A DNA stretch of 34,849 nt from an uncultured delta proteobacterium (GTDB lineage: Bacteria > RBG-13-61-14 > DRUE01): contig CAIUDS010000728.1 in the NCBI GenBank assembly GCA_903897985.1, positions 1 through 34,849 of the forward strand. Reading direction: 5' to 3'. This document shows, piece by piece, positions 5,776-34,849 of this stretch. The position numbers were made by a program, and so were the translations under genes. The notes below the pieces were generated by a model. The model saw only the letters and a program-made list of their open reading frames with translations, made no database searches and was not told the origin of the DNA. Position 1 is the stretch's first letter, and every line of letters begins with the position of its first letter.

Positions 5776-6613
5776 GTTGCTCCTTTTCCTGATGATAGAT
5801 ATTCGCCAGCTTGACCAGCCGCTCGAGTTCGATTTCCTCCGCCCGCGAGCGGGGACTGATCCCGGCGCGTTCCAGCAATTCCTCAAGTTTGTCCTTTTCC
5901 AAGGCCAGGCTCGATCCGGTCAACGAATTGATAATCATCTTTCTCCGCTGCCGGAAACAGGCTTTAACCACCTTCTTGAAATGCGCATAATCGGATACGG
6001 CAAAGCGGGGTTGCTCCAGAACCTTGAACTTGACCAAAGCCGAGTCAACCTTGGGCCGGGGCCGGAAGGCCTGCGGACCGATCCGCAAAATAATTTCCGG
6101 CTCGGAATGAAGCTGGGCGATGACCGACAGGATCCCATAATCCCGGGAGTGCGGCTTGGCCACCACCCGCTCGGCAACCTCCTTTTGCAGCATCAGATAA
6201 AGCTCGCTGAAGAATCCCGGACTCTCCAGCACCTTAAAAATTACTTGGGTGGAAATGTTATACGGTAGGTTAGAAATTACTTTAAGTTTTTTGTCTAACA
6301 CTCCAATTTCATTAAAGTTAAACTCCAAGATGTCCACCTCGATCACATCCAGATTTTGAGCCCAGATTTTGTATTTGAGTTGATGAGCCAAGGCTGAATC
6401 CAGTTCCACGGCAAAGACTTTTCTCGCGTTTTTGACCAGGTATTTGGTGAGGTTTCCCAAGCCCGGCCCGATTTCCAGGACTTGGTCGTCGGGTCCGACC
6501 TTTGCCAGGCTGACAATTTTTTGCAGAAGGTTTTCATCAACCAGGAAATTTTGGCCCAGGCTTTTCTTGCTCCGATGTCCGAAGCTTGGGAACGGTTTTC
6601 CGTTTGGATTCAT
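5759..6613 (-). CDS. rsmA: 16S rRNA (adenine1518/1519-N6)-dimethyltransferase
   Basis: KKSLGQNFLVDENLLQKIV and VLEIGPGLGNLT (SAM-binding) motifs. The 3' end overlaps the mutM start by 17 nt. Confidence 0.9.
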   Translation of the reverse strand: MNPNGKPFPSFGHRSKKSLGQNFLVDENLLQKIVSLAKVGPDDQVLEIGPGLGNLTKYLVKNARKVFAVELDSALAHQLKYKIWAQNLDVIEVDILEFNFNEIGVLDKKLKVISNLPYNISTQVIFKVLESPGFFSELYLMLQKEVAERVVAKPHSRDYGILSVIAQLHSEPEIILRIGPQAFRPRPKVDSALVKFKVLEQPRFAVSDYAHFKKVVKACFRQRRKMIINSLTGSSLALEKDKLEELLERAGISPRSRAEEIELERLVKLANIYHQEKEQHAGTA

Positions 6614-7614
6614 TTCCAGTTTTCCAGGGGCAGCACGGCCCGGGCATCCAGGGTCAGGGCATCCTTGAGCCCGCGTTTCAGTTTTTCCTCGCCCACCAGC
6701 GCGATCATTCCGGCATTGTCCGTGCAGAGCCGGAAGGACGGGATGGAAACGGAAATTCCCTTTTTCCGGGCAAGCTCTTCGCAGGCCGAGCGGAGCCGCT
6801 GGTTCGCGGCCACGCCGCCGCTCAAGACCATGCTCTTGATCTTGAATTTGTCAATGGCGAAATCGGTTTTCTGGACCAAAGCTTTGACCACGGCCTCTTG
6901 AAAGCCGGCGGCCAGGTCCGGCAAATGGTCCTTGCTCTCGGGATGTTCCTTGACATAACGGACCAACGCGGTCTTGAGGCCCGAGAAACTCAGGTCCAAC
7001 TCGCTATGCTTGGTGAAGGCGATCGGGAACCGGATGGCCTTGGGATTGCCCTGTTTCGAGACGCGGTCAATTTCCTTGCCGCCCGGGTAGGGCAGTCCGA
7101 GCACCTTGGCGGCCTTGTCCAGGGCCTCGCCCGCGGCATCGTCCAGGGTCTGGCCGAGCATTTTATACCGGCCCCAGTCCTCGGCCAGGCAAAGGATGGT
7201 GTGGCCGCCGCTGGCGATGAGACCGAGGAACGGGAACTGCATCTGCGGGTTCTCAAGAAAAACCGACAACAGATGTCCTTCCAAATGATTCACGCCCGAG
7301 AGCGGTAACTGGCGGCTCCAGGGAAGCGCCTTGGCAAAACCCAATCCGACCAGCAGACACACCACCAGCCCCGGACCCTTGGTAACGGCCACGGCTTCAA
7401 CCTGGTCCATCTTGATTCCGGCCTGGCTAAGGGCTGATTCCACCACGCCGGAAATAACTTCGAGATGCCGCCTGCCTGCCAGTTCCGGCACCACCCCGCC
7501 GAACTTCTTATGGATCTCGTCCTGACTGGCGATGATGTTGGAAAGGAGTTTCCGATCGGAAACCACCGCGGCCGAAGTTTCATCGCAACTGGTCTCTATG
7601 CCCAGGGTCAGCAT
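6610..7614 (-). CDS. tsaD: tRNA N6-adenosine threonylcarbamoyltransferase
   Basis: MLTLGIETSCDETSAAVV N-terminus, HLEGHL and SGGVAANQRLR motifs of the Kae1/TsaD family. 4-nt overlap with rsmA. Confidence 0.9.
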   Translation of the reverse strand: MLTLGIETSCDETSAAVVSDRKLLSNIIASQDEIHKKFGGVVPELAGRRHLEVISGVVESALSQAGIKMDQVEAVAVTKGPGLVVCLLVGLGFAKALPWSRQLPLSGVNHLEGHLLSVFLENPQMQFPFLGLIASGGHTILCLAEDWGRYKMLGQTLDDAAGEALDKAAKVLGLPYPGGKEIDRVSKQGNPKAIRFPIAFTKHSELDLSFSGLKTALVRYVKEHPESKDHLPDLAAGFQEAVVKALVQKTDFAIDKFKIKSMVLSGGVAANQRLRSACEELARKKGISVSIPSFRLCTDNAGMIALVGEEKLKRGLKDALTLDARAVLPLENWK

Positions 7615-14794: not shown

Positions 14795-14813
14795 AAAGCT
14801 CAGAGAATTTTAT

Positions 14814-14841
14814 CTGTAATTTGTAATGTGTAATCTGTAAT
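14814..14841. repeat. Heptad microsatellite (NTGTAAT)x4
   Basis: CTGTAAT-TTGTAAT-GTGTAAT-CTGTAAT read directly. Confidence 0.8.
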
Positions 14842-14943
14842 CCTATCTGCCTGCAGGATCAGGTCATCTGCCATAAGAACTTTTCCGAACCAGCCGGCAA
14901 ATGGGGGCGAGAAGGTCTAAGGGCTGGGCCTGACCCCTGGAGT

Positions 14944-15790: not shown

Positions 15791-18700
15791 TTACTTGTTT
15801 CTTGCCCTGCTCCACTCAAAACCGATGGAATTGAGATTGGCTATCTTTTCAGGGGATAGACGATCCTTATGGATTCTTAGATTTGAAACCCAATGCCCAA
15901 ATTTCTTATTTTCTTTCCATCTAGCGGGCACATTACAATGGCCATACTTTTTCTTGAAACCTTTCAATCCTTGAAACATCTGGTTCCATCTTGTTTCAAT
16001 GGGATCCCAATCAAATCCGATTGAATCAAGCTTAGCTCGCTTTTCTGGCGGCAGACGATCCTTTTTCACCCTTTGGGTGACCACCCAGGTTCCTAATTCC
16101 TTCTTGCTTTCCCATCCACGAGGCACATTGCAATGGCCATTTTCTTTCTCAAAGGCTGCCAACTTTTCAAACATCTGATTCCATATAGTTTCAAGAGGAT
16201 CCCAGTCAAACCCAATTTCATTGAGCTTGGCAATTTTTGCATTTGGTAGGCGGTTTTTTTTGAATCTTTGATTATTAACCCATGTGCTTAATTGTTTATT
16301 TTCTTTACTTCCCCGAGGTACATTACAATGGCCATGCTTTTTATTGAAAGTCTTCAATTGTTCAAACATCTGGTTCCATTTTGATTCCTCGGGATCCCAA
16401 TCAAATCGAATGGAATTCAGCTTGCCAAGTCTTTTAGGTGATTGGCCATCCTTAGTATTTCTCTGCGTAACAACCCATTGCGCCAGCTGCCTATTTTCCC
16501 ATCCTCGTGGAACATTGCAATAGCCATGCTTCTTCTTAAAAGCTACCAACTGTTCAAACATATGATTCCAAATAGTTTCAAGAGGATCCCAGTCAAATCC
16601 TATGAAATCTAGCTTATATCGCCTTTCAGGTGAGAGGTTATCCTTGGTTCTTCTCTGTACGCAAACCCATTTACCCAGCTGCTTATTTTTACCCCATTTT
16701 TGTGAAACATTGCAATGGCCGTGCTTTTTATTGAAAGCTTCTATCTGTTCAAACATTTGGTTCCATGCGTTTTCATGGGGATCCCAATCAAATCCAATAG
16801 AATCAAGCTTGGCTATCTTTTCAGGTGACATGCCACGCTTTCTAGTTCTCTGCGTGCCTACCCATGACCCCAACTGCTTATTTCCCTTCCATTTGTCAGG
16901 CACATTACAATGTCCGTGCTCTGCCTTGAAATCTAGTAGCTGCTTAAACATCTTGTCCCATAGGTTTTCGTGAGGATCCCAGTCAAAACCAATCGAATCA
17001 AGCTTCAATACTTTTTCAGGTGATATGCGGTCTTTGTTGACTCTTTGCCAAGTGACCCATGTGCCAAACCGTCTATTTTCTTTGCACATGGCCGGCACAT
17101 TACAATGGCCATACTTTTGCTTGTAAACAACAAGTTGCTGGAACATGACTTCCCAGGGTTGGAGTCGTTCGGAGATTCGATCAAAAAGTTCGCGGATTTC
17201 CTTGGTCTCGTCAGTGATATGGAAGCATGGCGCATACTCTTCCAAGCCCAGTTCTTTTCTTGCCCTGGCTTCCTGTTCCCTGGCCTCCTGCAAGTCCCTT
17301 AAAAAATCGTTGGCGCGAATATTCTGGAAGTTGTTGACGAAATCAAATATGATCGGGGTCTGGTCCACTCCTACCTGGATGCAGCGGCCGATTTGCTGGA
17401 AGAAAACAATGGGGCTTTCGGTTGGCCTAAGCAGGATGACCGCGCCCACATCCGGGATGTGAATGCCCTCGTTGAGCATATCAATGGCAAACATGAGATG
17501 GGCGGTATCTTTGGCCTTGGCATCCCGGAACTCCTGAAGGTTCTGGTCGTTGGCCTGATCCCCGGAGAGCAGGCGGTATTTTTGGCGTTTTTTGAAAATG
17601 CCGGCTTTTTGAAACCAGGATTCCACCACCCATTCCATCTGGTCCAGGTGCTCTTTGTCTTTGCAGAAGATGATGAACTTGTTGATCCTGGGGTTAAGGT
17701 GCTTTTTGAGAATTTCCGGGATGCCCTTGGTTTTTTCCCAGGCAATCTTTGATTGCCTGATCTGGGCCTCGATCTGCTTCTTCTCGGCTGCCGGTTTGCT
17801 GCTGTCTTCAAGCTTTTCCTGCAAATCCTTGATTTCTTCATCAAGGGTATAGAGCGCGGCCACATAGTTTGGGGCCGGGAGGATTCTCCTGATGATGGCC
17901 TGGGCCAGTGATAAATCCTCGGCAACCGTTCCGCCGAAAAGTTCATCGCTCATATCCCGGCTTTCATCCAGCCAGCGGATAGGTGTTGCCGTGGTTCCGA
18001 ACACAAAGGCCTTGCTATGTGCCTTTAGGATGCGATCCACGCCTTTGCCCCATTCTTCCGCGCCGCAACGGTGGAACTCGTCCAGCACGATCAATTTGGG
18101 CGCGAGCTTTTTGATTTCTGTTTTTGTGAGATGGATTCCTTTGGCATAGGTCATGAATTTGGTTGACTGGTTTGCCCAGGGGACTCTGCGCTGCTGCTGT
18201 TGGAGAATATATTTTTGAGGAGCCATTACGAGTTTCTTGTCCGCCAGAAAATCCGCCATGACTTTGGCGATCAGGTAGCTTTTTCCGGTGCCGGTGGCCT
18301 GGACCACGGCCACCTGCCTGCTGTCCATCCGGAGTTCGTTCACTCGCTGGTAGGTGGTTTCGTTATGCGCATAAAGGTCAATTTGCGGTTCGGTTAATTT
18401 TTCGGGGTCGTATTTTGCGATCAGGCCATCTAGATGGCCCCCGTCTTTTAACGACAGGTTGAACCGGCTTAGTTTTTGAGCTTCTTTGACGAATCCATTC
18501 AAGGCCACGAGCCGGAATTGCTGGCAGTCGTATTGCTTGGCTGATTGCTCCTCGAACTTAATCAGTTCGATTTTGGTCTGGTCAAAGGTCAGGGGCTTGG
18601 AGTGGTTCTTGGCCTGGATGATGTAGCTGGCTTTGGTCGGGGTCTTGGGATGATACAACAGGATGTCCGCGCCTTGGTCGCCGCGGCCTCCCTTGGTTTC

Positions 18701-18877
18701 CACCAGCCAGCCGTTGCCGTGATAAAGTTCGGCCAGGAATAATTCAAACGCCCGGCCCTTTTCCTTTTCCGGCAACTCGTTGAGTTGGCTTTTAATGGCC
18801 GCTGCATTCCGGCTTTTCAGTAGATCCAGCAGTTTATCGTCTCTCATGATTTTATCTTGCTCAAATTCTATTGCCAT
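15791..18877 (-). CDS. Mrr-type PD-(D/E)XK nuclease + SF2 (ResIII/DEAH-like) helicase + 7 tandem helicase-associated (HA) domains, 1028 aa
   Basis: The N-terminus has FELFLAELYHGNGW...GDQGADILLY...YIIQAKNH (Mrr_cat-like D...D/E-x-K). Helicase motifs are I QATGTGKS, II VLDEFH, III TTATP and VI FFQQIGRCIQ. Seven ~65-aa units follow, of the form W-x-x-MF-x-x-L-x-x-F/Y-K-x-K/E-x-GHCNVP...W-x-x-x-QR...L-x-x-IGFDWDP. Confidence 0.85.
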   Translation of the reverse strand: MAIEFEQDKIMRDDKLLDLLKSRNAAAIKSQLNELPEKEKGRAFELFLAELYHGNGWLVETKGGRGDQGADILLYHPKTPTKASYIIQAKNHSKPLTFDQTKIELIKFEEQSAKQYDCQQFRLVALNGFVKEAQKLSRFNLSLKDGGHLDGLIAKYDPEKLTEPQIDLYAHNETTYQRVNELRMDSRQVAVVQATGTGKSYLIAKVMADFLADKKLVMAPQKYILQQQQRRVPWANQSTKFMTYAKGIHLTKTEIKKLAPKLIVLDEFHRCGAEEWGKGVDRILKAHSKAFVFGTTATPIRWLDESRDMSDELFGGTVAEDLSLAQAIIRRILPAPNYVAALYTLDEEIKDLQEKLEDSSKPAAEKKQIEAQIRQSKIAWEKTKGIPEILKKHLNPRINKFIIFCKDKEHLDQMEWVVESWFQKAGIFKKRQKYRLLSGDQANDQNLQEFRDAKAKDTAHLMFAIDMLNEGIHIPDVGAVILLRPTESPIVFFQQIGRCIQVGVDQTPIIFDFVNNFQNIRANDFLRDLQEAREQEARARKELGLEEYAPCFHITDETKEIRELFDRISERLQPWEVMFQQLVVYKQKYGHCNVPAMCKENRRFGTWVTWQRVNKDRISPEKVLKLDSIGFDWDPHENLWDKMFKQLLDFKAEHGHCNVPDKWKGNKQLGSWVGTQRTRKRGMSPEKIAKLDSIGFDWDPHENAWNQMFEQIEAFNKKHGHCNVSQKWGKNKQLGKWVCVQRRTKDNLSPERRYKLDFIGFDWDPLETIWNHMFEQLVAFKKKHGYCNVPRGWENRQLAQWVVTQRNTKDGQSPKRLGKLNSIRFDWDPEESKWNQMFEQLKTFNKKHGHCNVPRGSKENKQLSTWVNNQRFKKNRLPNAKIAKLNEIGFDWDPLETIWNQMFEKLAAFEKENGHCNVPRGWESKKELGTWVVTQRVKKDRLPPEKRAKLDSIGFDWDPIETRWNQMFQGLKGFKKKYGHCNVPARWKENKKFGHWVSNLRIHKDRLSPEKIANLNSIGFEWSRARNK
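15794..17161 (-). repeat. Intragenic tandem repeat, ~195 bp x 7 (HA-domain array)
   Basis: The protein-level periodicity is visible in DNA as recurring GGATCCCA(A/G)TCAAA(T/A)CC and ACATT(A/G)CAATGGCC words roughly every 195 nt. Confidence 0.8.
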
Positions 18878-24137: not shown

Positions 24138-24861
24138 ATGAGCTGCAAAATCAAACTTTATAAATTTAGATCTCTTGGCGATGAAACCGCTTTTGATCGC
24201 GCCAAGAACATATTAGAACAAGGCAAATTTCATTGTGAAGTTTTTTTCAAACTTAATGACCCGATGGAGGGGGTATTTGAAATCCCCGATTCTTCGGACA
24301 AGGAAAGACTCGAGAATAATATCTTATCTATTTTTAGGTCGAAAACCAAATATCATTTGCTCGTTCAGCGGTCAAGAGGGCTTTAAGAATCCGACAATGT
24401 GGGGATATTACGCCAATGGCTTCAAAGGCATCGCCATTGAAATCAATGTTGACGAAAATGCCGTGAAGGAAATAAAATATCTGGACAAAATAAGTGATGT
24501 TGCCGATCTTGCACAAGGATCGGATGATGCAAAAGCTAAGGAATTATTAGCCCGCAAGCTGCGCGCTTGGGAACACGAGCATGAATATCGGTTTTTAGGG
24601 ACATCCGGCCATGAAGACTGCGAAATCGGAAAAATAACAGCCGTATATTTTGGAAATCCGTACGGCGGAATCTATAAGAAAAATCAAGAAGAAATCTACA
24701 ATCATAGCGAAGCTTTACGCTGTTATAACTGCCACAAAAGTGCTCTTATCCAGGTCGCAAACAGATCAGACATTAAGTGTGCTTCGGTTAAAATTGTCAC
24801 AGCAAGGAGCGCTAATGGAGAGGAATCACTAGCGGTCTCCGAAGATGAGCAGTTGACCTGA
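24138..24861 (+). pseudogene. DUF2971-family protein split by a frameshift
   Basis: The N-terminal part (ATG 24138, AGGAGGGA RBS) reads MSCKIKLYKFRSLGDE...FKLNDPMEG and stops at 24386. The C-terminal part, IICSFSGQEGFKNPTMWGYYANGFKGIAIEI...WEHEHEYRF, continues in the frame of ORF 24235..24861. The switch must occur near 24333-24350 (T5/A4 runs). Confidence 0.6.
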
Positions 24862-26687: not shown

Positions 26688-28631
26688 ATGAAACCCCGGG
26701 CGGCAATATATTTTTGCGCGATGTCGGCCTTGATCCTGGCCGGCTGTTTCAAGCCGAGCGACCCAAAGCTCGGGGTCAAGGAAGTGGACGGCGTGCCCAT
26801 CCTTTGGGAATATGGCATTCCCTATTTCACGCGGTTTCCGATCACGGACCATAAGCAACTGGACCTGGCCGGAACCTGGAAGTTCCAGCCCGACCCCAAG
26901 GATCAGGGCGTGGCGGAAAAATGGTTCGATCCGACTTTTGACGACCGGGAATGGTTTGATCATCCGGTTCCGGGTAGCTGGAATGTTCAAAAACCGGAAT
27001 GGCTCAATTATGTGGGCGCGGGCTGGTATCGGAAAAGGTTCACCGCCCCGCGGGATTTTTCCGGCCGCTTCAACCGGCTCATCCTGGACGGCGTTTCCTT
27101 CCAGGGCGATGTTTATCTGAACGGAAAATTCGCGGGCTCGCACTCGGGCGGCTTCACGCGCTGGAACCTGGAGGTTTCCGGGTTGCTGAATTACGGCGGG
27201 GAAAACCTGCTGGCGATCAAGGTGGACAACCGGAGAAGCTGGGACACGCTCCCGCCCATTGTGCATGAGCGCGGGCCGCTGGGCTGGTGGCCGTATGGCG
27301 GCATTCATCGCCTGGCCATGATCGAGAGCGGGCCGATGATAACGGTCTGCAAGTTGGCGGCGTTCACCGACCATCGGGGAGCGCTTACTTTGCAGGGCGG
27401 GGTCTATAACCACTTCGATCGAGACCTGAGACCGATTGTCACGGTTTCCCTTTATGACCTTGCGGGAAATCCAGTTGCCAATTTGCTCTACGAGGAGCCC
27501 CTGATCTATGCCCAAGAAGTCTGGGCGTTCAAGCTGGACCGCGAAATCGAGAACATCCAGCCTTGGTCGCCGGATGCGCCCGGGAACCGCTATCGTCTGC
27601 AAGTCCGGGTGATCTATCCGGATGACCGGGAAGATCAATCGGTTGAAATCGGGTTCCGCAAATTCGAGGTCAAAGGCTCGGCGCTTTATTTGAACGGCCG
27701 GCCTTTTTATATCAAGGGCGTGAACCGTCATGAGGACGACCCGCAAACCGGTCGGGTCCAGACCGATGCGCGGATCGCCGAAGACCTCAAACTGCTGCGC
27801 GAGTTGCATGCCAACCTGGTCCGCACTTCTCATTACCCGAATGATCCGCGTTTCCTCGACGCCTGCGACCGCGAAGGCATCCTGGTCATGGAGGAGATCT
27901 CGCTGCACCAGGTCGGATGGGAATATAAGGGCATCCGCGCGGCCGAGCATGAGCCGCTGTTTCTCAACGCCTCCCGCGAGTTGATGGAAACCATCGAGCG
28001 CGACCGCAATCACCCCGCGCTGGCGATCTATTCGCTCGGCGACGAGAGTTTCACCTTTTTCCCCTCCATCCGCGTCCTGCACCGCCGACTCTATGACCTG
28101 GCCAAGCGCTTTGACAACGACCGGCCCGTGACCATGGCCATCGTCACCGTCCCGCGCAAGGTGACGCCCTGGCTGGAAATGACCGCGGGCATCGGGGACC
28201 TGATCAGCGTGAACGAATACTTCGGATGGTATTACGGCGAATTCAGCCAACTCGGGCCGTTCCTCGATTCGCTCCATAAAAAATGGCCGGACAAGCCCAT
28301 CATCATTTCCGAATTGGGCGCCGAGGGCGTTCCCGGCGCCAAACCGGGCAAGCTCTATCCCATCGGCTATGGCCAATCCCGCGATTTTACACTCGAAGGC
28401 CAAACCAGGTTCTATCAGGAACAATTAAAAATTGTCAAAGGCAAAGCCTTCATCAAAGGCGTCATCCCCTGGGTGCTTGCGGACCACCGCGACGACAAGC
28501 GCCCCAAAAGCGCAGTCCCCCTCATGAACACCAAAGGCCTGCTTACCTATGACCGCCAAAAAAAGCCCGCCTTCGATCTCGTCTCCGAATTCTTCCAGAG
28601 CTGGAACCCTGATTCATCCTCAGAAAAATAG
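26688..28631 (+). CDS. Glycoside hydrolase family 2 lipoprotein (beta-galactosidase/glucuronidase-like)
   Basis: Lipobox ILAGC, GWYRKRF sugar-binding-domain motif, NLVRTSHYPNDPRFLDACDREGILVMEE, NHPALAIYSLGDE and ISELGAEG (candidate acid/base and nucleophile regions). Confidence 0.8.
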   Translation: MKPRAAIYFCAMSALILAGCFKPSDPKLGVKEVDGVPILWEYGIPYFTRFPITDHKQLDLAGTWKFQPDPKDQGVAEKWFDPTFDDREWFDHPVPGSWNVQKPEWLNYVGAGWYRKRFTAPRDFSGRFNRLILDGVSFQGDVYLNGKFAGSHSGGFTRWNLEVSGLLNYGGENLLAIKVDNRRSWDTLPPIVHERGPLGWWPYGGIHRLAMIESGPMITVCKLAAFTDHRGALTLQGGVYNHFDRDLRPIVTVSLYDLAGNPVANLLYEEPLIYAQEVWAFKLDREIENIQPWSPDAPGNRYRLQVRVIYPDDREDQSVEIGFRKFEVKGSALYLNGRPFYIKGVNRHEDDPQTGRVQTDARIAEDLKLLRELHANLVRTSHYPNDPRFLDACDREGILVMEEISLHQVGWEYKGIRAAEHEPLFLNASRELMETIERDRNHPALAIYSLGDESFTFFPSIRVLHRRLYDLAKRFDNDRPVTMAIVTVPRKVTPWLEMTAGIGDLISVNEYFGWYYGEFSQLGPFLDSLHKKWPDKPIIISELGAEGVPGAKPGKLYPIGYGQSRDFTLEGQTRFYQEQLKIVKGKAFIKGVIPWVLADHRDDKRPKSAVPLMNTKGLLTYDRQKKPAFDLVSEFFQSWNPDSSSEK

Positions 28632-28745
28632 AGGCAAGCCAAAGGGTACGGGCTTTCCGGCGGAAAGCCCTTCCTCAAAATCGGCAATAAAAAACCGGCA
28701 TTTGATCTGGTGGCGGAGTTCTTCCGCACCCGGAACCCGGACTGA
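28632..28745 (+). pseudogene. Duplicated GH2 3'-end fragment, in frame behind the TAG stop
   Basis: Codons after TAG 28629-28631 read RQAKGYGLSGGKPFLKIGNKKPAFDLVAEFFRTRNPD*. This parallels the real C-terminus DRQKKPAFDLVSEFFQSWNPDSSSEK*. Confidence 0.6.
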
Positions 28746-28789
28746 CCATTTTGTCTGCTCAATTTTTAGCGTGTTGCTCGCAAGCCCGA

Positions 28790-28889
28790 TTACAGCCTTG
28801 ACTCGCAACACGCTCCTTTTCTTACGAAATATGCGAGGGTGCACGCAGTCTTCGCTGTGGCTTGACGGGAATCGGCGCTTTGATACACT
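28790..28889 (+). CRISPR. Minimal type II array: one intact 36-nt repeat (28854-28889), ~29-nt spacer, possible degenerate repeat (28790-28825)
   Basis: In GCTGTGGCTTGACGGGAATCGGCGCTTTGATACACT, bases 28867-28889 pair 22/23 with tracrRNA 34218-34240. CTGTG (28855-28859) pairs with CACAG (34248-34252). A second (G/C)CTTGAC...CGCT core lies 64 nt upstream, at CRISPR-like spacing, but overall identity is only ~40%. No further copies are in the window. Confidence 0.5.
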
Positions 28890-28894
28890 CTTGC

Positions 28895-28928
28895 GCCCCG
28901 AAATCATTGAATTTCGGGGCTTTTTTTT
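28895..28928 (+). terminator. Intrinsic terminator 5 nt after the solo repeat
   Basis: GCCCCGAAAT-cattga-ATTTCGGGGC followed by T8. The U-run exists only on the + strand, so it ends a transcript running toward cas2. Confidence 0.8.
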
Positions 28929-28939
28929 GGTTTTTGCGC

Positions 28940-29284
28940 CTAGAAAAATGACATTTGCATGGGCGGATCTTCGGTCGGCACGCGGTTTTTTCCGAAGAAG
29001 ACATCCATCTTTCCGAACTGGCGGTCGGTAACCGAGAGCAGTCTGACCCGTCCCTCGGGCGGGATGATCCCCGAGACCTTATGCCGCTGGATGTCCGACT
29101 TTTCCTCGGAAGCGAAGTAGCGGGCATAGACCGAAAACTGGAGCATGGTGAAGCCCTGTTTGAGGATGGATTTGCGGAACTGGGCATATTCCTTGCGGGC
29201 TTCTTTGGTGTCCACCGGTAGGTCGAATAATACGAATAACCACATGGCACGATACTCCGATAGGTTGAGGTTGGTTTCTGGCAT
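28940..29284 (-). CDS. cas2: CRISPR-associated endoribonuclease Cas2 (type II)
   Basis: YRAMWLFVLFDLPVDTKEARKEYAQFRKSILKQGFTMLQFSVYARY matches the type II-A/C Cas2 pattern. Confidence 0.9.
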   Translation of the reverse strand: MPETNLNLSEYRAMWLFVLFDLPVDTKEARKEYAQFRKSILKQGFTMLQFSVYARYFASEEKSDIQRHKVSGIIPPEGRVRLLSVTDRQFGKMDVFFGKNRVPTEDPPMQMSFF

Positions 29285-29308
29285 GGGAATTTAACCGCAA
29301 GAGATTTT

Positions 29309-29407
29309 AACCGCAGATAAACGCAGATGAACGCGGATAATATAATTTAATACTTTTCTTTTTTTTCTCTTGAAAATATCTGCGTCCATCTGCGTTTATC
29401 TGCGGTT
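29309..29407. repeat. Imperfect ~30-bp inverted repeat around an AT-rich loop
   Basis: AACCGCAGATAAACGCAGATGAACGCGGATA (29309-29339) faces TATCTGCGTCCATCTGCGTTTATCTGCGGTT (29377-29407). Confidence 0.8.
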
Positions 29408-29410
29408 CCC

Positions 29411-29800
29411 TCAAAAATTATTGACAATCCTCTTTATCTCCACTTTCGGTTTGCCGAAATTTATGAGCAGGCAGATGGGCAAGCCGGTTGCTTTCAAATA
29501 ATTGAGGCATTGGGCCAGATGGATATCGTCCAGGGCTTTGACGGCCTTGATTTCCACAATCACCTTTTGCTCAACCAGCAAGTCGGCAATGTAATCGCCC
29601 ACGAGAACTCCATCATACTTGACCTGGATGCCGTATTGATGTTCAACCTGCAGCCCTGCCCTGCCGATTTCGTAGGCCAAGGCATTTTCATAAACCTTCT
29701 CCAAAAAGCCGTTTCCCAGCTTATTGCTGACGGTATAGGCGCAACCGATAATTTTATCGGTGATGCTGTTCAAATCGGCTTTTTCCGAATCAGTCAACAT
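29411..29800 (-). CDS. GxxExxY protein (PD-(D/E)XK nuclease superfamily)
   Basis: GNGFLEKVYENAL contains the eponymous G-x-x-E-x-x-Y. DLLVEQKVIVEIKAV supplies the D...E-x-K core. 129 aa, the size typical of the family. Confidence 0.85.
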   Translation of the reverse strand: MLTDSEKADLNSITDKIIGCAYTVSNKLGNGFLEKVYENALAYEIGRAGLQVEHQYGIQVKYDGVLVGDYIADLLVEQKVIVEIKAVKALDDIHLAQCLNYLKATGLPICLLINFGKPKVEIKRIVNNF

Positions 29801-29817
29801 TTTTTACCCCCCCTTTC

Positions 29818-29851
29818 TTATCTGCGTTCATCTGCGTCCATCTGCGGTTCC
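29818..29851. repeat. 10-nt-period tandem repeat (ATCTGCG core x3), direct copy of 29377-29407
   Basis: TTATCTGCG-TTCATCTGCG-TCCATCTGCG-GTTCC ends 2 nt from the cas1 stop. Confidence 0.8.
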
Positions 29852-29852
29852 A

Positions 29853-30740
29853 TCATATTTCCGGCAAAACCAATTCATTGGTTTGCCCTTCAAAAATTTG
29901 GGCGAGGGAAGACGCGGTCCGGCTGATGATGTCGAAAAGGGTCCTTTCCTCCCCTTCCAGAATGAACCTGCCGGTCAAGGCCCCAATAATGACGGCTTTG
30001 GCTTCTTTCTCCAGCGGCGCAGCCGCCCCTTTTCCCTTTACCAGATTCACGACCGCCCGATCAACAATCGGCCGGAACGGTTCCATCAGGTCGTCGGCCA
30101 GGCAATAGGAATCGTAGCGGTTGTGATGGTGAACCCCGAGAGAGGGATGCAGCCCGGCCCCGCAAACTGCTCTCGCAGTAATCGCTCTCAAGACGGTGTA
30201 ACCATAGTTAAGAAATTTATTCTGGTCCTCGGCTTCGCGGTCCCGCAAAAATTCCGCATCCCCAAAAATCTTGGGCCAATACTTCCGGCTGGCCCACCCT
30301 TCCAGGTTCTCCGTGTCGCCGGATTTAACATCTTTAGACATGGCCAGCAAACCTTCATCCTTGCCATAAAGCTCTTGCAGCAGTTTGCCCTGGTTCTTGA
30401 TCTTTTCGCTCACGATCTGCTTCCAGATTTGCTTGCAGGTGGGCTGGGAGGCTTGCGTCTGCTTGAGGAACCGTTCGCCTTGGGTGGAATGACCCACAAT
30501 AGGAAGAAGCATCCCGACCGGGAGGTATTTGTTGTTGCACACAATGAACGCGCCACACGCTTCCATCAATCCGGCCAGGGCCGCGTTGGTATAATGAACC
30601 TGGGGGTGTGAAGAGATGATTACGGCAATATCGCTGAAGGGCATGGTGATCTCCGGCTTATCCTTGCGCTCGATCACCAACAACCCAATCCGGCTGCTCA
30701 AAAATGCCGCCTCCTCCGAAAAGTCCAGAATCCGGTCCAT
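29853..30740 (-). CDS. cas1: CRISPR-associated endonuclease Cas1 (type II)
   Basis: 295 aa with NYGYTVLRAITARAV, GLHPSLGVHHHNRYDSYCLADDLMEPFRPIVD (Cas1 catalytic His/Asp region). Confidence 0.9.
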   Translation of the reverse strand: MDRILDFSEEAAFLSSRIGLLVIERKDKPEITMPFSDIAVIISSHPQVHYTNAALAGLMEACGAFIVCNNKYLPVGMLLPIVGHSTQGERFLKQTQASQPTCKQIWKQIVSEKIKNQGKLLQELYGKDEGLLAMSKDVKSGDTENLEGWASRKYWPKIFGDAEFLRDREAEDQNKFLNYGYTVLRAITARAVCGAGLHPSLGVHHHNRYDSYCLADDLMEPFRPIVDRAVVNLVKGKGAAAPLEKEAKAVIIGALTGRFILEGEERTLFDIISRTASSLAQIFEGQTNELVLPEI

Positions 30741-30834
30741 CCTTCGTAGCCCCTATCTTTTTTCCATAATTACCAGTTCCTGAAGGATACTCAATGAGCC
30801 CAAAAGTTGCGCTGATGCTTTTCGCGAAGAAGGA

Positions 30835-33800
30835 TCAGTCATTGGCCCAGCGAATATTTCCCATTGGATCAATCAATACCTTTTTTGCCTCTGAAACTCT
30901 AAGACTTTCGGGATACCGAGACCTACCTTCTTTGGGAATTTCCGACACAGGCCTAGCATCAGTGTTTTTGACAAAAAACATTTGCTGATTTTGCCCAATT
31001 TTTTGAACTATCCATAATTGCTGAATGCCTTTATCATCCTTCATCAGAACGCTTTCGTTCCTGGCAAGAGAAAAAATAAATTTTGTTCCTTCTCCGTGGT
31101 TCCGTTTTACGATTGGTTCTTTACCCTTGGTTCTCAGCCTGCGCATCGCTTCAAAGGTTGTTACAACATCCGCATCCCAATATGGATTCCCCTTTTTGTC
31201 TTTTGCTTCAAATATTTCTATGTGGTGATTTGAGCTTGTTTCCAAATTGCGAGTAAATTTTTGCGTTCCATCCGGCAGGGTGACTGGTTTTCCAATCGGG
31301 ATGGTTGTATTCGGCTTTTTTATCCGCACTTTATTGATGGGGATTTTTCGACCATCCTTGGTTTCCATAAAAGGATGATTTTCTATATTCTCAAATTTCT
31401 TGATGTCACCCCCAAGGGATTTAAGTTTTTCGATAACCAGCTTCTTGATTACAGGATCAACGATATTCTCCAATTCCTTGTTGGTCAGAGCGGCAATGGG
31501 TTTGCGAATGTGACTATAGGTATTTCCTCTCTCATCCACTTTTTGTGGGCTATAAATATGGTCAGCATGCAAAGGTCCATTCACCTTTTTGGAAACCCGG
31601 TGAGACACAATTGTCTGGTCAATGGCTTCTTTTACTTTTTCATAAAAATTTCCCCAGGGTTCATCCATTTTCCCGAAACGATGACGCTTTTCTTTCTGCG
31701 CATTTTCAGAAGCCTTACTAAGTTGGTTCACAATGGCTCGATCGGTCAAGGCAATGCAGATGGCGTCAATGGCATGGTGGCGATGGTCGGTTCTTGCTTT
31801 GTCGCCGCCCTCCGAAAGAATTCGGTTTAGATCCCAGATTTCTTTCCCACGCAAGTATGATGTAATACCGCCTTTTGTCGTCTGGACTCGACCGAGAGCT
31901 TTCTCGCCATAAAGCAGCCCTAAATAATCCCTGCCCTTGCTTGCCGCATAAGCGGTATCAATGAGTTGTGAATCAACAAAATCGCTTAATTTCTCCAAAC
32001 TATCAATTTGGAACCGCTCCAGCTTAGCTTGAGCAGACGAGGATTTCACCTTTTTGAAGCCTTTGCCATTCTTTCTCTTAACTGAGACGGTCAATAGAGG
32101 TTTGAAATCTTTTACTCGCCTTAGAATATCACTCCACCTTTCTTGGTCGCTGCCATAGGCTTGCCATGGAGATTTTTTGCCTTTGATAGCATTTTCTTCA
32201 TTGGCGCATAATGTTTTATTGATAAATGAATTATCGAGACAAATCTTGAAGGGTATAATGTGTTCAATTTGAAATTGAGGGTTCTTGCCAAAGAGATTGG
32301 CCATACTTATGCCCTTTCCGGTATAAGGACATTTCCAATCGCATTCTTCGGCCAATAAATATTTATCGAGATCATCGCGACTGGGATTCTGTATCCCAAT
32401 CTCCTTCAGTATATTTCTGGCCTTATCCCTTTCAGCCCGGTTTTGTTCATTCATCTTGGAGTGGATTTCCCTGCTTTGCCTGGTCCTTTTTGTGTCCCGA
32501 ACAAGCTCAAGCCTGATTTCCGCCGGCTTGCCATATTCTCTAACAATCGCATTAACCACCTTGCGCAGTTCGGTAAGAACCCGCTTGACCACCGGATTGG
32601 AAAGCTCGGGCAATTCCTCGTGCACCATGGGCAAGCAATCCCGCGCATCGCCTTTGAAGCGGTCGGGATAGGCATTCTTAACCGATTCCATATATTTCAT
32701 TCCATTTTCCATCAAAGGGAGAAGCTTGGATAAGGCCATCCGAGAAAGCCCGCAATAGCCATCTTCAAGCTCGATTGCGCTGAATTTTTCGGCAGTTTTA
32801 TCGTCCAGACCCCATTTTTCCTTGCCTCGCTTAACCAATCCCTTTTCATGTTGAATGCTGATCAAATCCCGAACAATTTCTTCCCGGTCTTGAACAGGTA
32901 AACCCATCCATTTCTCAAATCCAATAACATCAATGATTTGGGCCGCAGTCCGATTGCCACGGAACCCTTTTTCTCCACGACCTTCAAAATTGAATTTAAG
33001 AACCTTCAGGGGCTTCAGCAAAGCCTTAACTTGAGAAAATGTCAGTTCCTCTTTGATGTCCAACTCTTTTAACAACAAAGCCATTTGCTCCTCGGTAAAT
33101 TCCTTTATCTCACCATCGGTGGTTACGACTTTGGTGTTTTGTAGTTGCTGCAAAGTCCGAAAACGCTGAAACGTAAGGCACGCCTTTGGCGCTCTTTTTC
33201 TCCCCTTCTCATATTCGCAGACTCCGATTATTGGCGGCTTTAATGGCCTTTGATGAAATATAGCCTTCTTAATTCTTTCCCTAAATTCCGGATTTAACAT
33301 TTGCGGAAAGTACTCTATTTGTTTTCCCCAAATCTCCTCAAACTCCGCCGAATACATATCGCGACCCGTCCATCTACCCCGAATGCGAATTTGCTCAGGA
33401 TTGAGCTTTGAAAGATATTCACCAAGGGTTCGAACATTTGCTCCTTCAATTTCTCCCGCTAACTTCTCAATATCCGCTTTTACTATTCCGAAGTCTTCAT
33501 CTTTCTTGGAATTGGCCTTGCGGTTGCTTAAGAAGCCCCGGCGCTGCGCAAGATGGAACAAGGCTCGGCCAAATTCATCGGGTTCCAGTTTTTGGTCGAG
33601 GGCTTTGGCGCGGAGGAGATAAGGAAGGACCTCGGAGGCCATTGGCTCTTTGCCCTGCCATTTCTTGATCAACTCCTGGTCAAGCCGGTTGATTATTTCG
33701 TGGCGGGCCTGGGCCTTTAAATGCCGCTCTTCTTTCCTTTGCCGAGAGCTTTTCTTTTTGCCCAGTTTGGTTTGATAGGCTGGATGTTCGGGCAAAAGCC

Positions 33801-34083
33801 CTGCGCTCATTAGCAGATAAAATAAATGGCTTAATCTTCTTGAAGTTCGGTCCAGCCGACGCCGAGTAAGTCGCGCATCCCGCCTAACCACCCCTCTTGA
33901 TTGATCCTTGCCCGAGGCAATGTCTCCGTCCACCCCCGCCTCAAAAATGCGGACCCCGGTTTTTTCAATTGCGAATGGTTTGAGTCGGCCTTCCTTTTCC
34001 GAAGGAACCGCTTTAAGCAAGGCCCAGCCAATGGAATTCGACCCTAAATCCAGCCCCAGAATAAAATGATCCTTTTCCGCCAT
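30835..34083 (-). CDS. cas9: Cas9, type II-C-like, 1082 aa
   Basis: RuvC-I ILGLDLGSNSIGWA. Arg-rich bridge helix RRDARLTRRRLDRTSRR. RuvC-II EIRLELVRD. HNH QIEHIIPFKICLDNSFINKTLCANEENAIKGKKSP. RuvC-III HHAIDAICIA. There is no csn2 or cas4 in the locus. An AAGGAGGG RBS is present. Confidence 0.95.
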   Translation of the reverse strand: MAEKDHFILGLDLGSNSIGWALLKAVPSEKEGRLKPFAIEKTGVRIFEAGVDGDIASGKDQSRGVVRRDARLTRRRLDRTSRRLSHLFYLLMSAGLLPEHPAYQTKLGKKKSSRQRKEERHLKAQARHEIINRLDQELIKKWQGKEPMASEVLPYLLRAKALDQKLEPDEFGRALFHLAQRRGFLSNRKANSKKDEDFGIVKADIEKLAGEIEGANVRTLGEYLSKLNPEQIRIRGRWTGRDMYSAEFEEIWGKQIEYFPQMLNPEFRERIKKAIFHQRPLKPPIIGVCEYEKGRKRAPKACLTFQRFRTLQQLQNTKVVTTDGEIKEFTEEQMALLLKELDIKEELTFSQVKALLKPLKVLKFNFEGRGEKGFRGNRTAAQIIDVIGFEKWMGLPVQDREEIVRDLISIQHEKGLVKRGKEKWGLDDKTAEKFSAIELEDGYCGLSRMALSKLLPLMENGMKYMESVKNAYPDRFKGDARDCLPMVHEELPELSNPVVKRVLTELRKVVNAIVREYGKPAEIRLELVRDTKRTRQSREIHSKMNEQNRAERDKARNILKEIGIQNPSRDDLDKYLLAEECDWKCPYTGKGISMANLFGKNPQFQIEHIIPFKICLDNSFINKTLCANEENAIKGKKSPWQAYGSDQERWSDILRRVKDFKPLLTVSVKRKNGKGFKKVKSSSAQAKLERFQIDSLEKLSDFVDSQLIDTAYAASKGRDYLGLLYGEKALGRVQTTKGGITSYLRGKEIWDLNRILSEGGDKARTDHRHHAIDAICIALTDRAIVNQLSKASENAQKEKRHRFGKMDEPWGNFYEKVKEAIDQTIVSHRVSKKVNGPLHADHIYSPQKVDERGNTYSHIRKPIAALTNKELENIVDPVIKKLVIEKLKSLGGDIKKFENIENHPFMETKDGRKIPINKVRIKKPNTTIPIGKPVTLPDGTQKFTRNLETSSNHHIEIFEAKDKKGNPYWDADVVTTFEAMRRLRTKGKEPIVKRNHGEGTKFIFSLARNESVLMKDDKGIQQLWIVQKIGQNQQMFFVKNTDARPVSEIPKEGRSRYPESLRVSEAKKVLIDPMGNIRWAND

Positions 34084-34123
34084 TTTACCACCCTCCTTTT
34101 ATTCGCCCATTTAACCACTTTTT

Positions 34124-34153
34124 ATACTAGACCACTTTTATTTATAATGTCAA
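34124..34153 (-). promoter_or_regulatory. Putative cas9 promoter
   Basis: Minus strand has TTGACA, an 18-nt spacer, then TAGTAT, about 35-40 nt upstream of the cas9 ATG. Confidence 0.45.
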
Positions 34154-34181
34154 ACATTTTTCGCTTTTTTTCATTTTTCCC

Positions 34182-34209
34182 TTGACAAGCAATTCAAAGT
34201 ATGTATAAT
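34182..34209 (+). promoter_or_regulatory. Near-consensus sigma70 promoter of the tracrRNA
   Basis: TTGACA (34182-34187), 16-nt spacer, TATAAT (34204-34209). It diverges from the cas9 promoter ~30 nt away. Confidence 0.65.
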
Positions 34210-34215
34210 TTTAAT

Positions 34216-34324
34216 CAAGTGTATCAAAGCGGCGATTCCCTTCTTTTCACAGTAAGGAGTTTCGTTCCGCAAGCGCTGCTCCACGGAGCATGCAGAGGCC
34301 CAGTTTACTGGGCCTCGTTTTTTT
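34216..34324 (+). ncRNA. tracrRNA (~108 nt)
   Basis: The predicted start is ~7 nt after the -10. Anti-repeat AGTGTATCAAAGCGGCGATTCCCTTCTTTTCACAG is complementary to the repeat at 28854-28889. UAAGGAG...CCGCAAGCGCUGCUCC follows and resembles the NmeCas9 tracrRNA segment UAAGGCCG...CCGCAACGCUCUGCC (from memory). Then come a GCUCC-ACG-GAGC hairpin and the terminator GAGGCCCAG-TTTA-CTGGGCCTC + T7. Confidence 0.7.
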
Positions 34325-34357
34325 CTCTTGCGGCCATTGCTCGCTATTATAACCCCA

Positions 34358-34377
34358 GTTGATGACAGAAGCGGTCA
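34358..34377. repeat. Second copy of the 20-nt motif GTTGATGACAGAAGCGGTCA
   Basis: Exact 20/20 match to 18911-18930. On the minus strand it is followed after 6 nt by TATAAT (34346-34351), the same spacing as at the first copy. Confidence 0.85.
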
Positions 34378-34693
34378 TTCTACTTCGTCCCGCGGAATAC
34401 GCGGGACTACGAAGAACCAAGCAAGGTCAGAGACCGGCACCACTTTTTTTCGGGATTCGGAGTTCGGGTTTCGGCAAGGGACAGGCACCCATGGGCCTAG
34501 AGACCAAGCGCATCTCCTTACTATCGTGCTTTTGACAGGCTTCAGAATAATCTACCGGACAAGTGCCTGTCCCCTCGCTGTTTGGCCCAGCCAAACAAAA
34601 GTGCGCTTTTGCAACAGTTTTATAAGGCATTGAAAAATAAGGGGAAAAAATATTTTTTCATTTTTTGTTTGGCTGCGCCTGACATTTCTGTTT

Positions 34694-34728
34694 CTGAAGT
34701 CTGAAGTCTAAGGTCTGAAGTCTGATTA
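34694..34728. repeat. Heptad microsatellite (CTGAAGT-like x5)
   Basis: CTGAAGT-CTGAAGT-CTAAGGT-CTGAAGT-CTGATTA read directly. Confidence 0.8.
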
Positions 34729-34800
34729 TGAATTCAAGGACTTAGAGCCGATTTTGGCCTGAAAAAGCGATGTAACGATTGTCCTATATAGAGGGGGACA

Positions 34801-34825
34801 CCGCGTTTTGCCGGGCAAAACGCGG
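34801..34825 (+). other. Perfect 11-bp hairpin just upstream of an AAGGAGGA RBS at the window edge
   Basis: CCGCGTTTTGC-CGG-GCAAAACGCGG followed by AGGTTCAAAGGAGGAAAGG. A gene probably starts just beyond base 34849. Confidence 0.4.
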
Positions 34826-34849
34826 AGGTTCAAAGGAGGAAAGGTTTAA

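Follow-up and report, generated by a model that had tools for sequence, protein, structure and literature searches.

The stretch of DNA analysed here (the window, 34,849 nt) is a complete metagenome contig, and the same strain has been assembled from other samples. Three cas genes, a tracrRNA gene and a lone CRISPR repeat with its flanking elements lie between positions 28768 and 34324:

28768-28823, plus strand: upstream hairpin (28768-28814) followed by a U-rich tract, CCUUUUCUU (28815-28823)
28824-28853, plus strand: constant flank before the first repeat, 30 nt, ACGAAATATGCGAGGGTGCACGCAGTCTTC; the "spacer" of a preliminary description of this DNA
28854-28889, plus strand: lone CRISPR repeat, 36 nt, GCTGTGGCTTGACGGGAATCGGCGCTTTGATACACT; single copy in the window
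28890-28939, plus strand: leader, from the array to cas2, holding an intrinsic terminator; new spacers would enter at its junction with the repeat
28940-29284, minus strand: cas2, 114 aa (TIGR01573, 61.8 bits)
29853-30740, minus strand: cas1, 295 aa, NMENI/type II (TIGR03639, 251 bits, full profile)
30835-34083, minus strand: cas9, 1082 aa, full-length frame (TIGR01865, 657.7 bits, whole profile)
34182-34324, plus strand: tracrRNA gene, with promoter (34182-34209), anti-repeat (34218-34252), conserved hairpin and terminator (34295-34316), then a T-run

Profile searches found the type II-C gene set of cas9, cas1 and cas2, without csn2 or cas4. The Cas9 frame contains the RuvC and HNH motifs (GLDLG with D12, IRLELVRD with E526, QIEHIIPF with H608, NKTLC with N622, and DHRHHAIDA) and is 55-58% identical to its nearest full-length homologues. 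No other full-length Cas9 in the searched protein collection exceeds 58% identity to it, which marks it as a distinct lineage; an exact-sequence look-up of the protein in one index returned no record. The closest solved structures, which score only ∼200 bits, are II-C-type enzymes, among them entry 6jdq, which we take to be Nme1Cas9. The tracrRNA promoter (TTGACA-16-TATAAT, 34182-34209) scores 12/12, and the anti-repeat arm (34218-34252) is 83% complementary to the repeat arm (28855-28889) across 35 nt, the pairing between tracrRNA and repeat that characterizes type II-C systems. The only other match in the window to the 22-nt 3' core of the repeat is the anti-repeat itself (34218-34239, opposite strand).

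The repeat GCTGTGGCTTGACGGGAATCGGCGCTTTGATACACT occurs once in the window at three or fewer mismatches, where none is expected by chance, and no tandem CRISPR array was found anywhere in the 34,849 nt. An array in the usual sense, with at least two repeats separated by spacers, is thus lacking in the window (one repeat); it is present in a contig of the same strain described below (L012; two repeats, one spacer). A promoter is embedded in the repeat, with a -35 element TTGACG (28862-28867), a TG dinucleotide (28881-28882) and a -10 element TACACT (28884-28889) at 16-nt spacing. Its predicted direction is toward cas2 and opposite to the cas operon, and both this orientation and the location of promoters inside repeats are those of type II-C arrays.

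Searching with the 22-nt repeat core identified three related loci (L002, L003 and L004), and L005, L007, L008 and L011 were reached through homologues of Cas9 and Cas2:

L002: 35/36 repeat copy at the edge (1-60) of a 2.1-kb contig from a Thermodesulfobacteriota MAG
L003: orphan array contig, 40 repeats
L004: 295-kb contig, 13 repeats by the 22-nt core, 12 exact over the full 36 nt
L005: at least 18 sister repeats; the array runs off the contig
L007: at least 11 sister repeats; the array runs off the contig, which ends before the tracrRNA side
L008: ∼24 sister repeats
L011: 13 sister repeats

The closest Cas9 relatives, L001 and L006, are uninformative on arrays because both contigs end at cas1. 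The window repeat is identical at 36/36 positions to the repeats of L003 and L004. L004, L005, L007, L008 and L011 each carry cas9-cas1-cas2 with an array transcribed toward cas2, and a divergent tracrRNA is present in L004, L005, L008 and L011, the L007 contig stopping short of that side. Cas2 of the window is 66-82% identical to Cas2 of the related loci, and its Cas9 is 55% identical to that of L004. A sigma-70-like promoter, TTGAC[G/A]-N16-TACACT, directed toward cas2, was called in every repeat of L004, L005, L007 and L008; the extended TG precedes the -10 element in four of five exact-consensus repeat types, L008 being the one without it. In an alignment of seven tracrRNAs (the window and six relatives), 7 of 21 predicted pairs show compensatory changes, and the L004 tracrRNA, which is ∼88% identical to that of the window, has compensatory changes in its terminator stem. 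The preliminary description had recognized a locus of type II-C whose cas genes are full-length and whose tracrRNA is genuine, and the profile matches, motifs and tracrRNA conservation bear this out. Its identification of the 36-nt copy at 28854-28889 as the sole repeat pairing with the anti-repeat is likewise confirmed by the mismatch scan and the complementarity, as are its assignment of an array polarity toward cas2, which the repeat promoters of both the window and its relatives share, and of an extended -10 promoter inside the repeat.

Several further features of the related arrays were observed. The L002 repeat is followed by CTTGC, as in the window; most of that contig consists of two diverged ∼800-nt copies of one sequence with the look, by eye, of an insertion sequence, and the 11 nt ahead of the repeat (TTTTTCCGCTT) recur inside both copies. 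In L003, at ∼1570-1700 of the minus-strand view, the neighbouring spacers GCAAATCCCTTAAGACATTCGGTTTTATTT and TGCAAATCCCTTAAGACATTCGGTTTTATT derive from one protospacer with a shift of 1 nt, which points to repeated acquisition at one site. The otherwise uniform L008 array includes two variant repeats (6500-6640), third and fourth from the cas2 end, one with an altered 5' end and the other with an A to C change in GGAATC; this position is unusual if the newest units sit at the cas2 end.

The leader begins with a strong intrinsic terminator. Five nucleotides past the repeat, a 10-bp stem with six G-C pairs (28895-28920) is followed by T8 (28921-28928), and the hairpin folds at -17.2 kcal/mol (z -3.6). 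Hairpins were likewise found 0-5 nt past the last repeat in L004, L005, L007, L008 and L011, all but L011 having a U-tract, and folding z-scores were -3.3 for L004, -2.1 for L005, -2.4 for L007 and -1.9 for L011. A simple terminator scan past the last repeat made no call in L004, L005 or L007, where the hairpins were recognized by folding. A terminator after the repeat thus appears from these sequences to be a standard component of the leader in this Cas9 family. The preliminary description was right to place a strong terminator 5 nt past the repeat, but the element is no anomaly, as it had supposed, because five loci with normal arrays have an equivalent hairpin after the last repeat.

On the other side of the repeat, the hairpin at 28768-28814 folds at -19.1 kcal/mol (z -4.4). 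The order of elements in L004 is that of the window: a hairpin, AGCGTGTTGC...GCAACACGCT, with a U-tract (-25.3 kcal/mol, z -5.2), 13 nt, the first repeat, 30-nt spacers and the last repeat, and beyond it the terminator hairpin, cas2 on the opposite strand, cas1, cas9 and the tracrRNA divergent from cas9. The upstream hairpin resembles a Rho-independent terminator and would shield the array from read-through out of the GH2 glycosidase gene, as had been suggested earlier and as its fold z-score, its U-tract and its presence in L004 make plausible; we regard it, on the strength of the shared sequence arrangement, as a boundary element common to the window and L004. The degenerate repeat copy previously described 64 nt upstream was rejected. 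It has 12/36 identities in register, and local alignment gives it at best a score of 6, below the null mean of 6.85 and equalled or exceeded by 89% of random window segments; it also overlaps the 3' arm of the shared hairpin. The similarity is at chance level.

Assemblies from other samples of the same strain differ from the window at the array. Contig L012 (ERZ18627939) is 99.9% identical to window positions 28853-29972 apart from a 66-nt insertion consisting of CATTTTGATAAATCTCGGAAGCCATTGCCC and a repeat, and reads GTGCACGCAGTCTTC / repeat / CATTTTGATAAATCTCGGAAGCCATTGCCC / repeat / CTTGCGCCCC, followed by the terminator and cas2. L013 (ERZ27313107) is 100% identical to the window, its first base being the start of the spacer CATTTTGATAAATCTCGGAAGCCATTGCCC. 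The additional 30-nt spacer and repeat in these two contigs are on the cas2 (leader) side, and at 100% identity both contigs match the window in repeat and leader. Two more assemblies were compared through gene coordinates. In ERZ1426824 the gap between GH2 and cas2 is 309 nt, as in the window, and the contig carries the exact 95-aa product of a spurious window ORF at 28620-28907; because both the gap and this product are shared, the lone-repeat join is reproduced in a second assembly. The ERZ1426813 contig ends 259 nt past the GH2 stop, which corresponds to window position 28890 (the repeat plus "c"), and 28890 is the position at which the zero-spacer (c|ttgcg) and one-spacer (c|attttg) forms diverge. 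A break at this point is what a mixed population of the two forms would predict. Because sister assemblies differ by exactly one spacer and repeat, we conclude that the array is polymorphic in this population; as read from these assemblies, it varies between zero and one spacer, and the window represents the zero-spacer form. The preliminary suggestion of a freshly acquired or collapsed array fits this difference of exactly one unit, which, being on the leader side, accords with acquisition but also with loss. Searches for targets of the spacer CATTTTGATAAATCTCGGAAGCCATTGCCC found none in the window, IMG/VR, phages or plasmids, the best matches in the last two both having E = 2; because no protospacer was found, no PAM could be derived.

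In ERZ1426824, the sample of the second lone-repeat contig, cas9 is split into 362 aa and 690 aa (window ∼33008-33011, codon ∼359). The 362-aa product ends in KALLKPPEGS*, as would result from one extra C in a CCCC run, and this +1 frameshift could be genuine and inactivating, or else an error of assembly.

The 30 nt ahead of the repeat were previously taken to encode at most one fixed guide of ∼29 nt. However, the last 15 nt of this segment, all that the L012 contig covers, are identical in L012 and still lie upstream of its first repeat. Because L012 keeps the flank upstream of repeat 1 and has its real spacer downstream, 28824-28853 is not a spacer; the comparison of sequences identifies it as a constant flank, neither acquired nor fixed as a guide. 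Relative to L004 it falls within a 26-nt insertion of the window, between the hairpin U-tract and the first repeat. The earlier remark that the unit formed by flank and repeat has no convincing promoter agrees with our scan, which found none upstream of it. The target search proposed earlier returned no match to the flank in IMG/VR viral contigs or phage records and no seed of at least 8 nt near the cas9 or tracrRNA promoters. The sole match in the window is to a 10-nt 3' seed at 24613 on the minus strand, and it falls within a long ORF (24235-24861). About 0.07 such matches would be expected by chance; the candidate self-targeting or regulatory seed was judged to be fortuitous and rejected. 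In the minimum free energy fold of 28824-28930 (z -3.1 for the whole segment), GCGAGGGUG of the flank (28833-28841) pairs with CACUCUUGC (28885-28893), which comprises the repeat end and the first bases of the leader; should the flank ever be expressed as RNA, it could be hidden by this pairing.

The locus stands out from its surroundings in base composition. GC content falls from 0.58-0.61 in the GH2 region to 0.41-0.48 over cas9 and the tracrRNA, with ∼0.53-0.54 over cas1 and cas2 (28400-34849), which suggests a horizontally acquired and possibly mosaic island. The GH2 glycosidase ends ...KKPAFDLVSEFFQSWNPDSSSEK at 28631, and positions 28680-28745 (plus strand) encode GNKKPAFDLVAEFFRTRNPD, a second, diverged copy of its C-terminus that is probably a relic of the rearrangement that put the CRISPR island here. 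Among the ORFs of at least 100 aa between cas9 and cas2, the only family match besides the cas genes was to a GxxExxY gene of the PD-(D/E)XK-like kind (29411-29800, minus strand, 129 aa; TIGR04256, 150 bits), which separates cas1 from cas2. Tandem 10-nt repeats of the ATCTGCG type flank it (region 29300-29865) and form inverted repeats of 31-32 nt (29309-29339 with 29377-29407, and 29309-29340 with 29818-29849); an Rfam search gave only spurious miRNA-type matches, within the long inverted repeat (29309-29407). L012 carries this GxxExxY insertion too, and cas1 and cas2 are adjacent in L004, L005, L007, L008 and L011. The cassette looks like a small mobile or selfish element, and its insertion may affect cas2 expression. 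Intergenic heptamer tandem repeats (TCCGAAT, ATCTGTA, TTTCGGG and TCTGAAG), which resemble those around the GxxExxY gene, are found at 1146-1164, 14812-14842, 34448-34474 and 34693-34725. Elsewhere in the window, 15791-18877 (minus strand) encodes a 1028-aa protein with an Mrr-type restriction endonuclease domain, a ResIII/DEAD helicase core and seven "helicase-associated" (HA) domains, the latter encoded by tandem DNA repeats of 192-195 nt (16316-17025). For TsaD, taken as a marker of the host lineage, the nearest named matches are only ∼53-55% identical.

Taken together, these observations make it probable that the low-GC island of the window contains a standard CRISPR-Cas9 locus of type II-C, whose array is at its minimum of one repeat and no spacer. 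The array is bounded upstream by the terminator-like hairpin, which would also shield the 30-nt flank from GH2 read-through, and a leader starting with a terminator separates the last repeat from cas2. In type II-C systems, promoters within the repeats initiate transcripts near nucleotide 6 of the spacer that follows, and the last repeat is where new spacers are added (PMC12080349). If the Neisseria pattern applies, each repeat promoter here would start ∼6 nt into the adjoining spacer, and with a single repeat the start would be at ∼28895, where the terminator stem begins. The lone repeat would then give rise only to the terminator hairpin, because its promoter fires downstream, and this hairpin RNA would be ∼30 nt long. 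The geometry of promoter and terminator, together with the Neisseria precedent, predicts that the locus makes no crRNA because no spacer-repeat unit is transcribed, which would leave Cas9 guide-free or in complex with tracrRNA alone. The repeat-leader junction and the cas1 and cas2 genes are unbroken, and the same analogy indicates that spacer acquisition should still be possible. The zero-spacer form would either precede a first acquisition or follow the loss of spacers by recombination between repeats. It is possible, though we hold this only tentatively, that the contigs have captured natural array neogenesis, with a recently transferred II-C island that came with a bare repeat, or was cut back to one, and has just gained its first spacer in sister populations.

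Because the window is a metagenome contig, in fact the whole of one, the main rival to a real zero-spacer array is assembler collapse: the strain would carry at least one spacer (R-S-R or longer), and the assembler would have dropped one or more 66-nt units. Assemblers can collapse or pop repeat-spacer units (PMC3664793), other assemblies of this strain do hold a spacer, and that of ERZ1426813 breaks exactly at the end of the repeat. The same break, however, is predicted by a real mixture of zero- and one-spacer forms, and the identical lone-repeat join appears in two separate assemblies; a de Bruijn assembler with k above ∼40 should need spanning reads to join flank, repeat and leader. We consider collapse unlikely, if not negligibly so, and even if it had occurred the array would still be tiny and the readings of the flank and terminator would be unchanged. 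The lone repeat could also be all that is left of a collapsed array, in a locus that is being lost after selection has gone. This seems to us doubtful at best: the window cas ORFs, the tracrRNA and its promoter, the repeat and the leader are all complete, the repeat matches those of active-looking arrays elsewhere at 36/36 positions, and sister populations have gained or kept a spacer. Hints of decay are seen in the ERZ1426824 frameshift that truncates cas9 to 362 aa, in the GxxExxY element with long inverted repeats that splits cas1 from cas2, and in the GH2 C-terminus relic that marks a rearrangement at the island border, but the frameshift could be an assembly error.

The preliminary description had also raised a hard-wired regulatory guide, in which flank and repeat would be transcribed, pair with the tracrRNA and steer Cas9 to a partly matching chromosomal site. 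The arrangement of a spacer-length sequence and a perfect repeat allows this idea, CRISPR loci can harbour mini-arrays and single-repeat units with regulatory roles (Shmakov et al., 10.1101/2023.03.03.530964), Neisseria II-C is reported to have a scaRNA (PMC13431127), and the 24613 match supplies a 10-nt 3' seed. Yet that match is in a long ORF and was judged fortuitous, a terminator-like hairpin lies between GH2 and a unit that has no upstream promoter, and the equivalent Neisseria allele makes no crRNA-like RNA (PMC12477760). Whereas a regulatory unit would be additional to a normal array, the window repeat holds the array position itself, as in L004, and would accept new spacers; and whereas such a unit would have its own promoter and a guide conserved in relatives, 26-30 nt of the flank are absent from L004. 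The analogy with scaRNA and tracr-L is unsupported because there is no promoter, no seed match at the cas9 or tracrRNA promoter and no flank in L004, and we regard a hard-wired guide as very improbable. A variant in which flank and repeat are expressed by read-through and act as a fixed guide is also less likely than array neogenesis.

The window locus shares its basic plan with the II-C systems of N. meningitidis and C. jejuni: cas9-cas1-cas2 without csn2 or cas4 and a tracrRNA adjoining cas9; 36-nt repeats, 30-nt spacers and an extended -10 element at the repeat 3' end, which are features of the window's family; and a polarity opposite to the cas operon with the new spacer on the cas2 side, as seen in the window's strain (PMC12080349). 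It differs from them in that no named or solved orthologue is close to its Cas9, its repeat adds a good -35 element (TTGACG), its leader starts with a strong terminator and its array holds no spacer. The first repeat of II-C arrays is an "extra" one, so that the upstream flank takes the place of a would-be extraneous crRNA guide (PMC12080349), and II-C systems suppress this RNA by upstream terminators, hairpins or repeat mutations (PMC12080349, PMC12477760). By this analogy the window flank occupies the extraneous-crRNA guide position, and its sequence arrangement, a non-spacer flank before the first repeat and a terminator-like hairpin with a U-tract upstream, is that of the ecrRNA systems (Feussner et al. 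2025, PMC12080349); unlike in those arrays, the extra repeat of the window is also the only one. Francisella scaRNA, S. pyogenes tracr-L, mini-arrays and single repeat units likewise place a solitary repeat beside a spacer-length sequence in a cas locus, but they accompany a normal array, are driven by a promoter of their own and are partly complementary to a target promoter (Shmakov et al. 2023), none of which was found in the window. In this Cas9 family, a single repeat followed by a terminator would accordingly signify a normal II-C array emptied of spacers and not a regulatory device.

The closest parallel is provided by R26, an engineered single-repeat allele of N. meningitidis that yields no crRNA on northern blots and, aided by apoCas9, takes up spacers at an increased rate (PMC12477760), and by array-collapsed escapers (Zhou et al. 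2025, PMC12477760). As in these, the window has one complete leader-adjacent repeat, a leader, complete cas genes including cas1-cas2, and a tracrRNA. Like R26, it is predicted to be free of crRNA and able to acquire spacers, a state of array neogenesis or contraction, both of which have been named as natural scenarios (PMC12477760). Unlike R26, the window state is natural and belongs to an uncultured bacterium, and stimulation by apoCas9 is assumed here. If the neogenesis reading is true, these contigs would represent a wild counterpart of the apoCas9 "super-adaptation" state of Neisseria. The near-identical populations that differ by zero versus one spacer provide a natural example of such arrays, by which the claim that guide-free Cas9 refills short arrays could be tested outside the laboratory.
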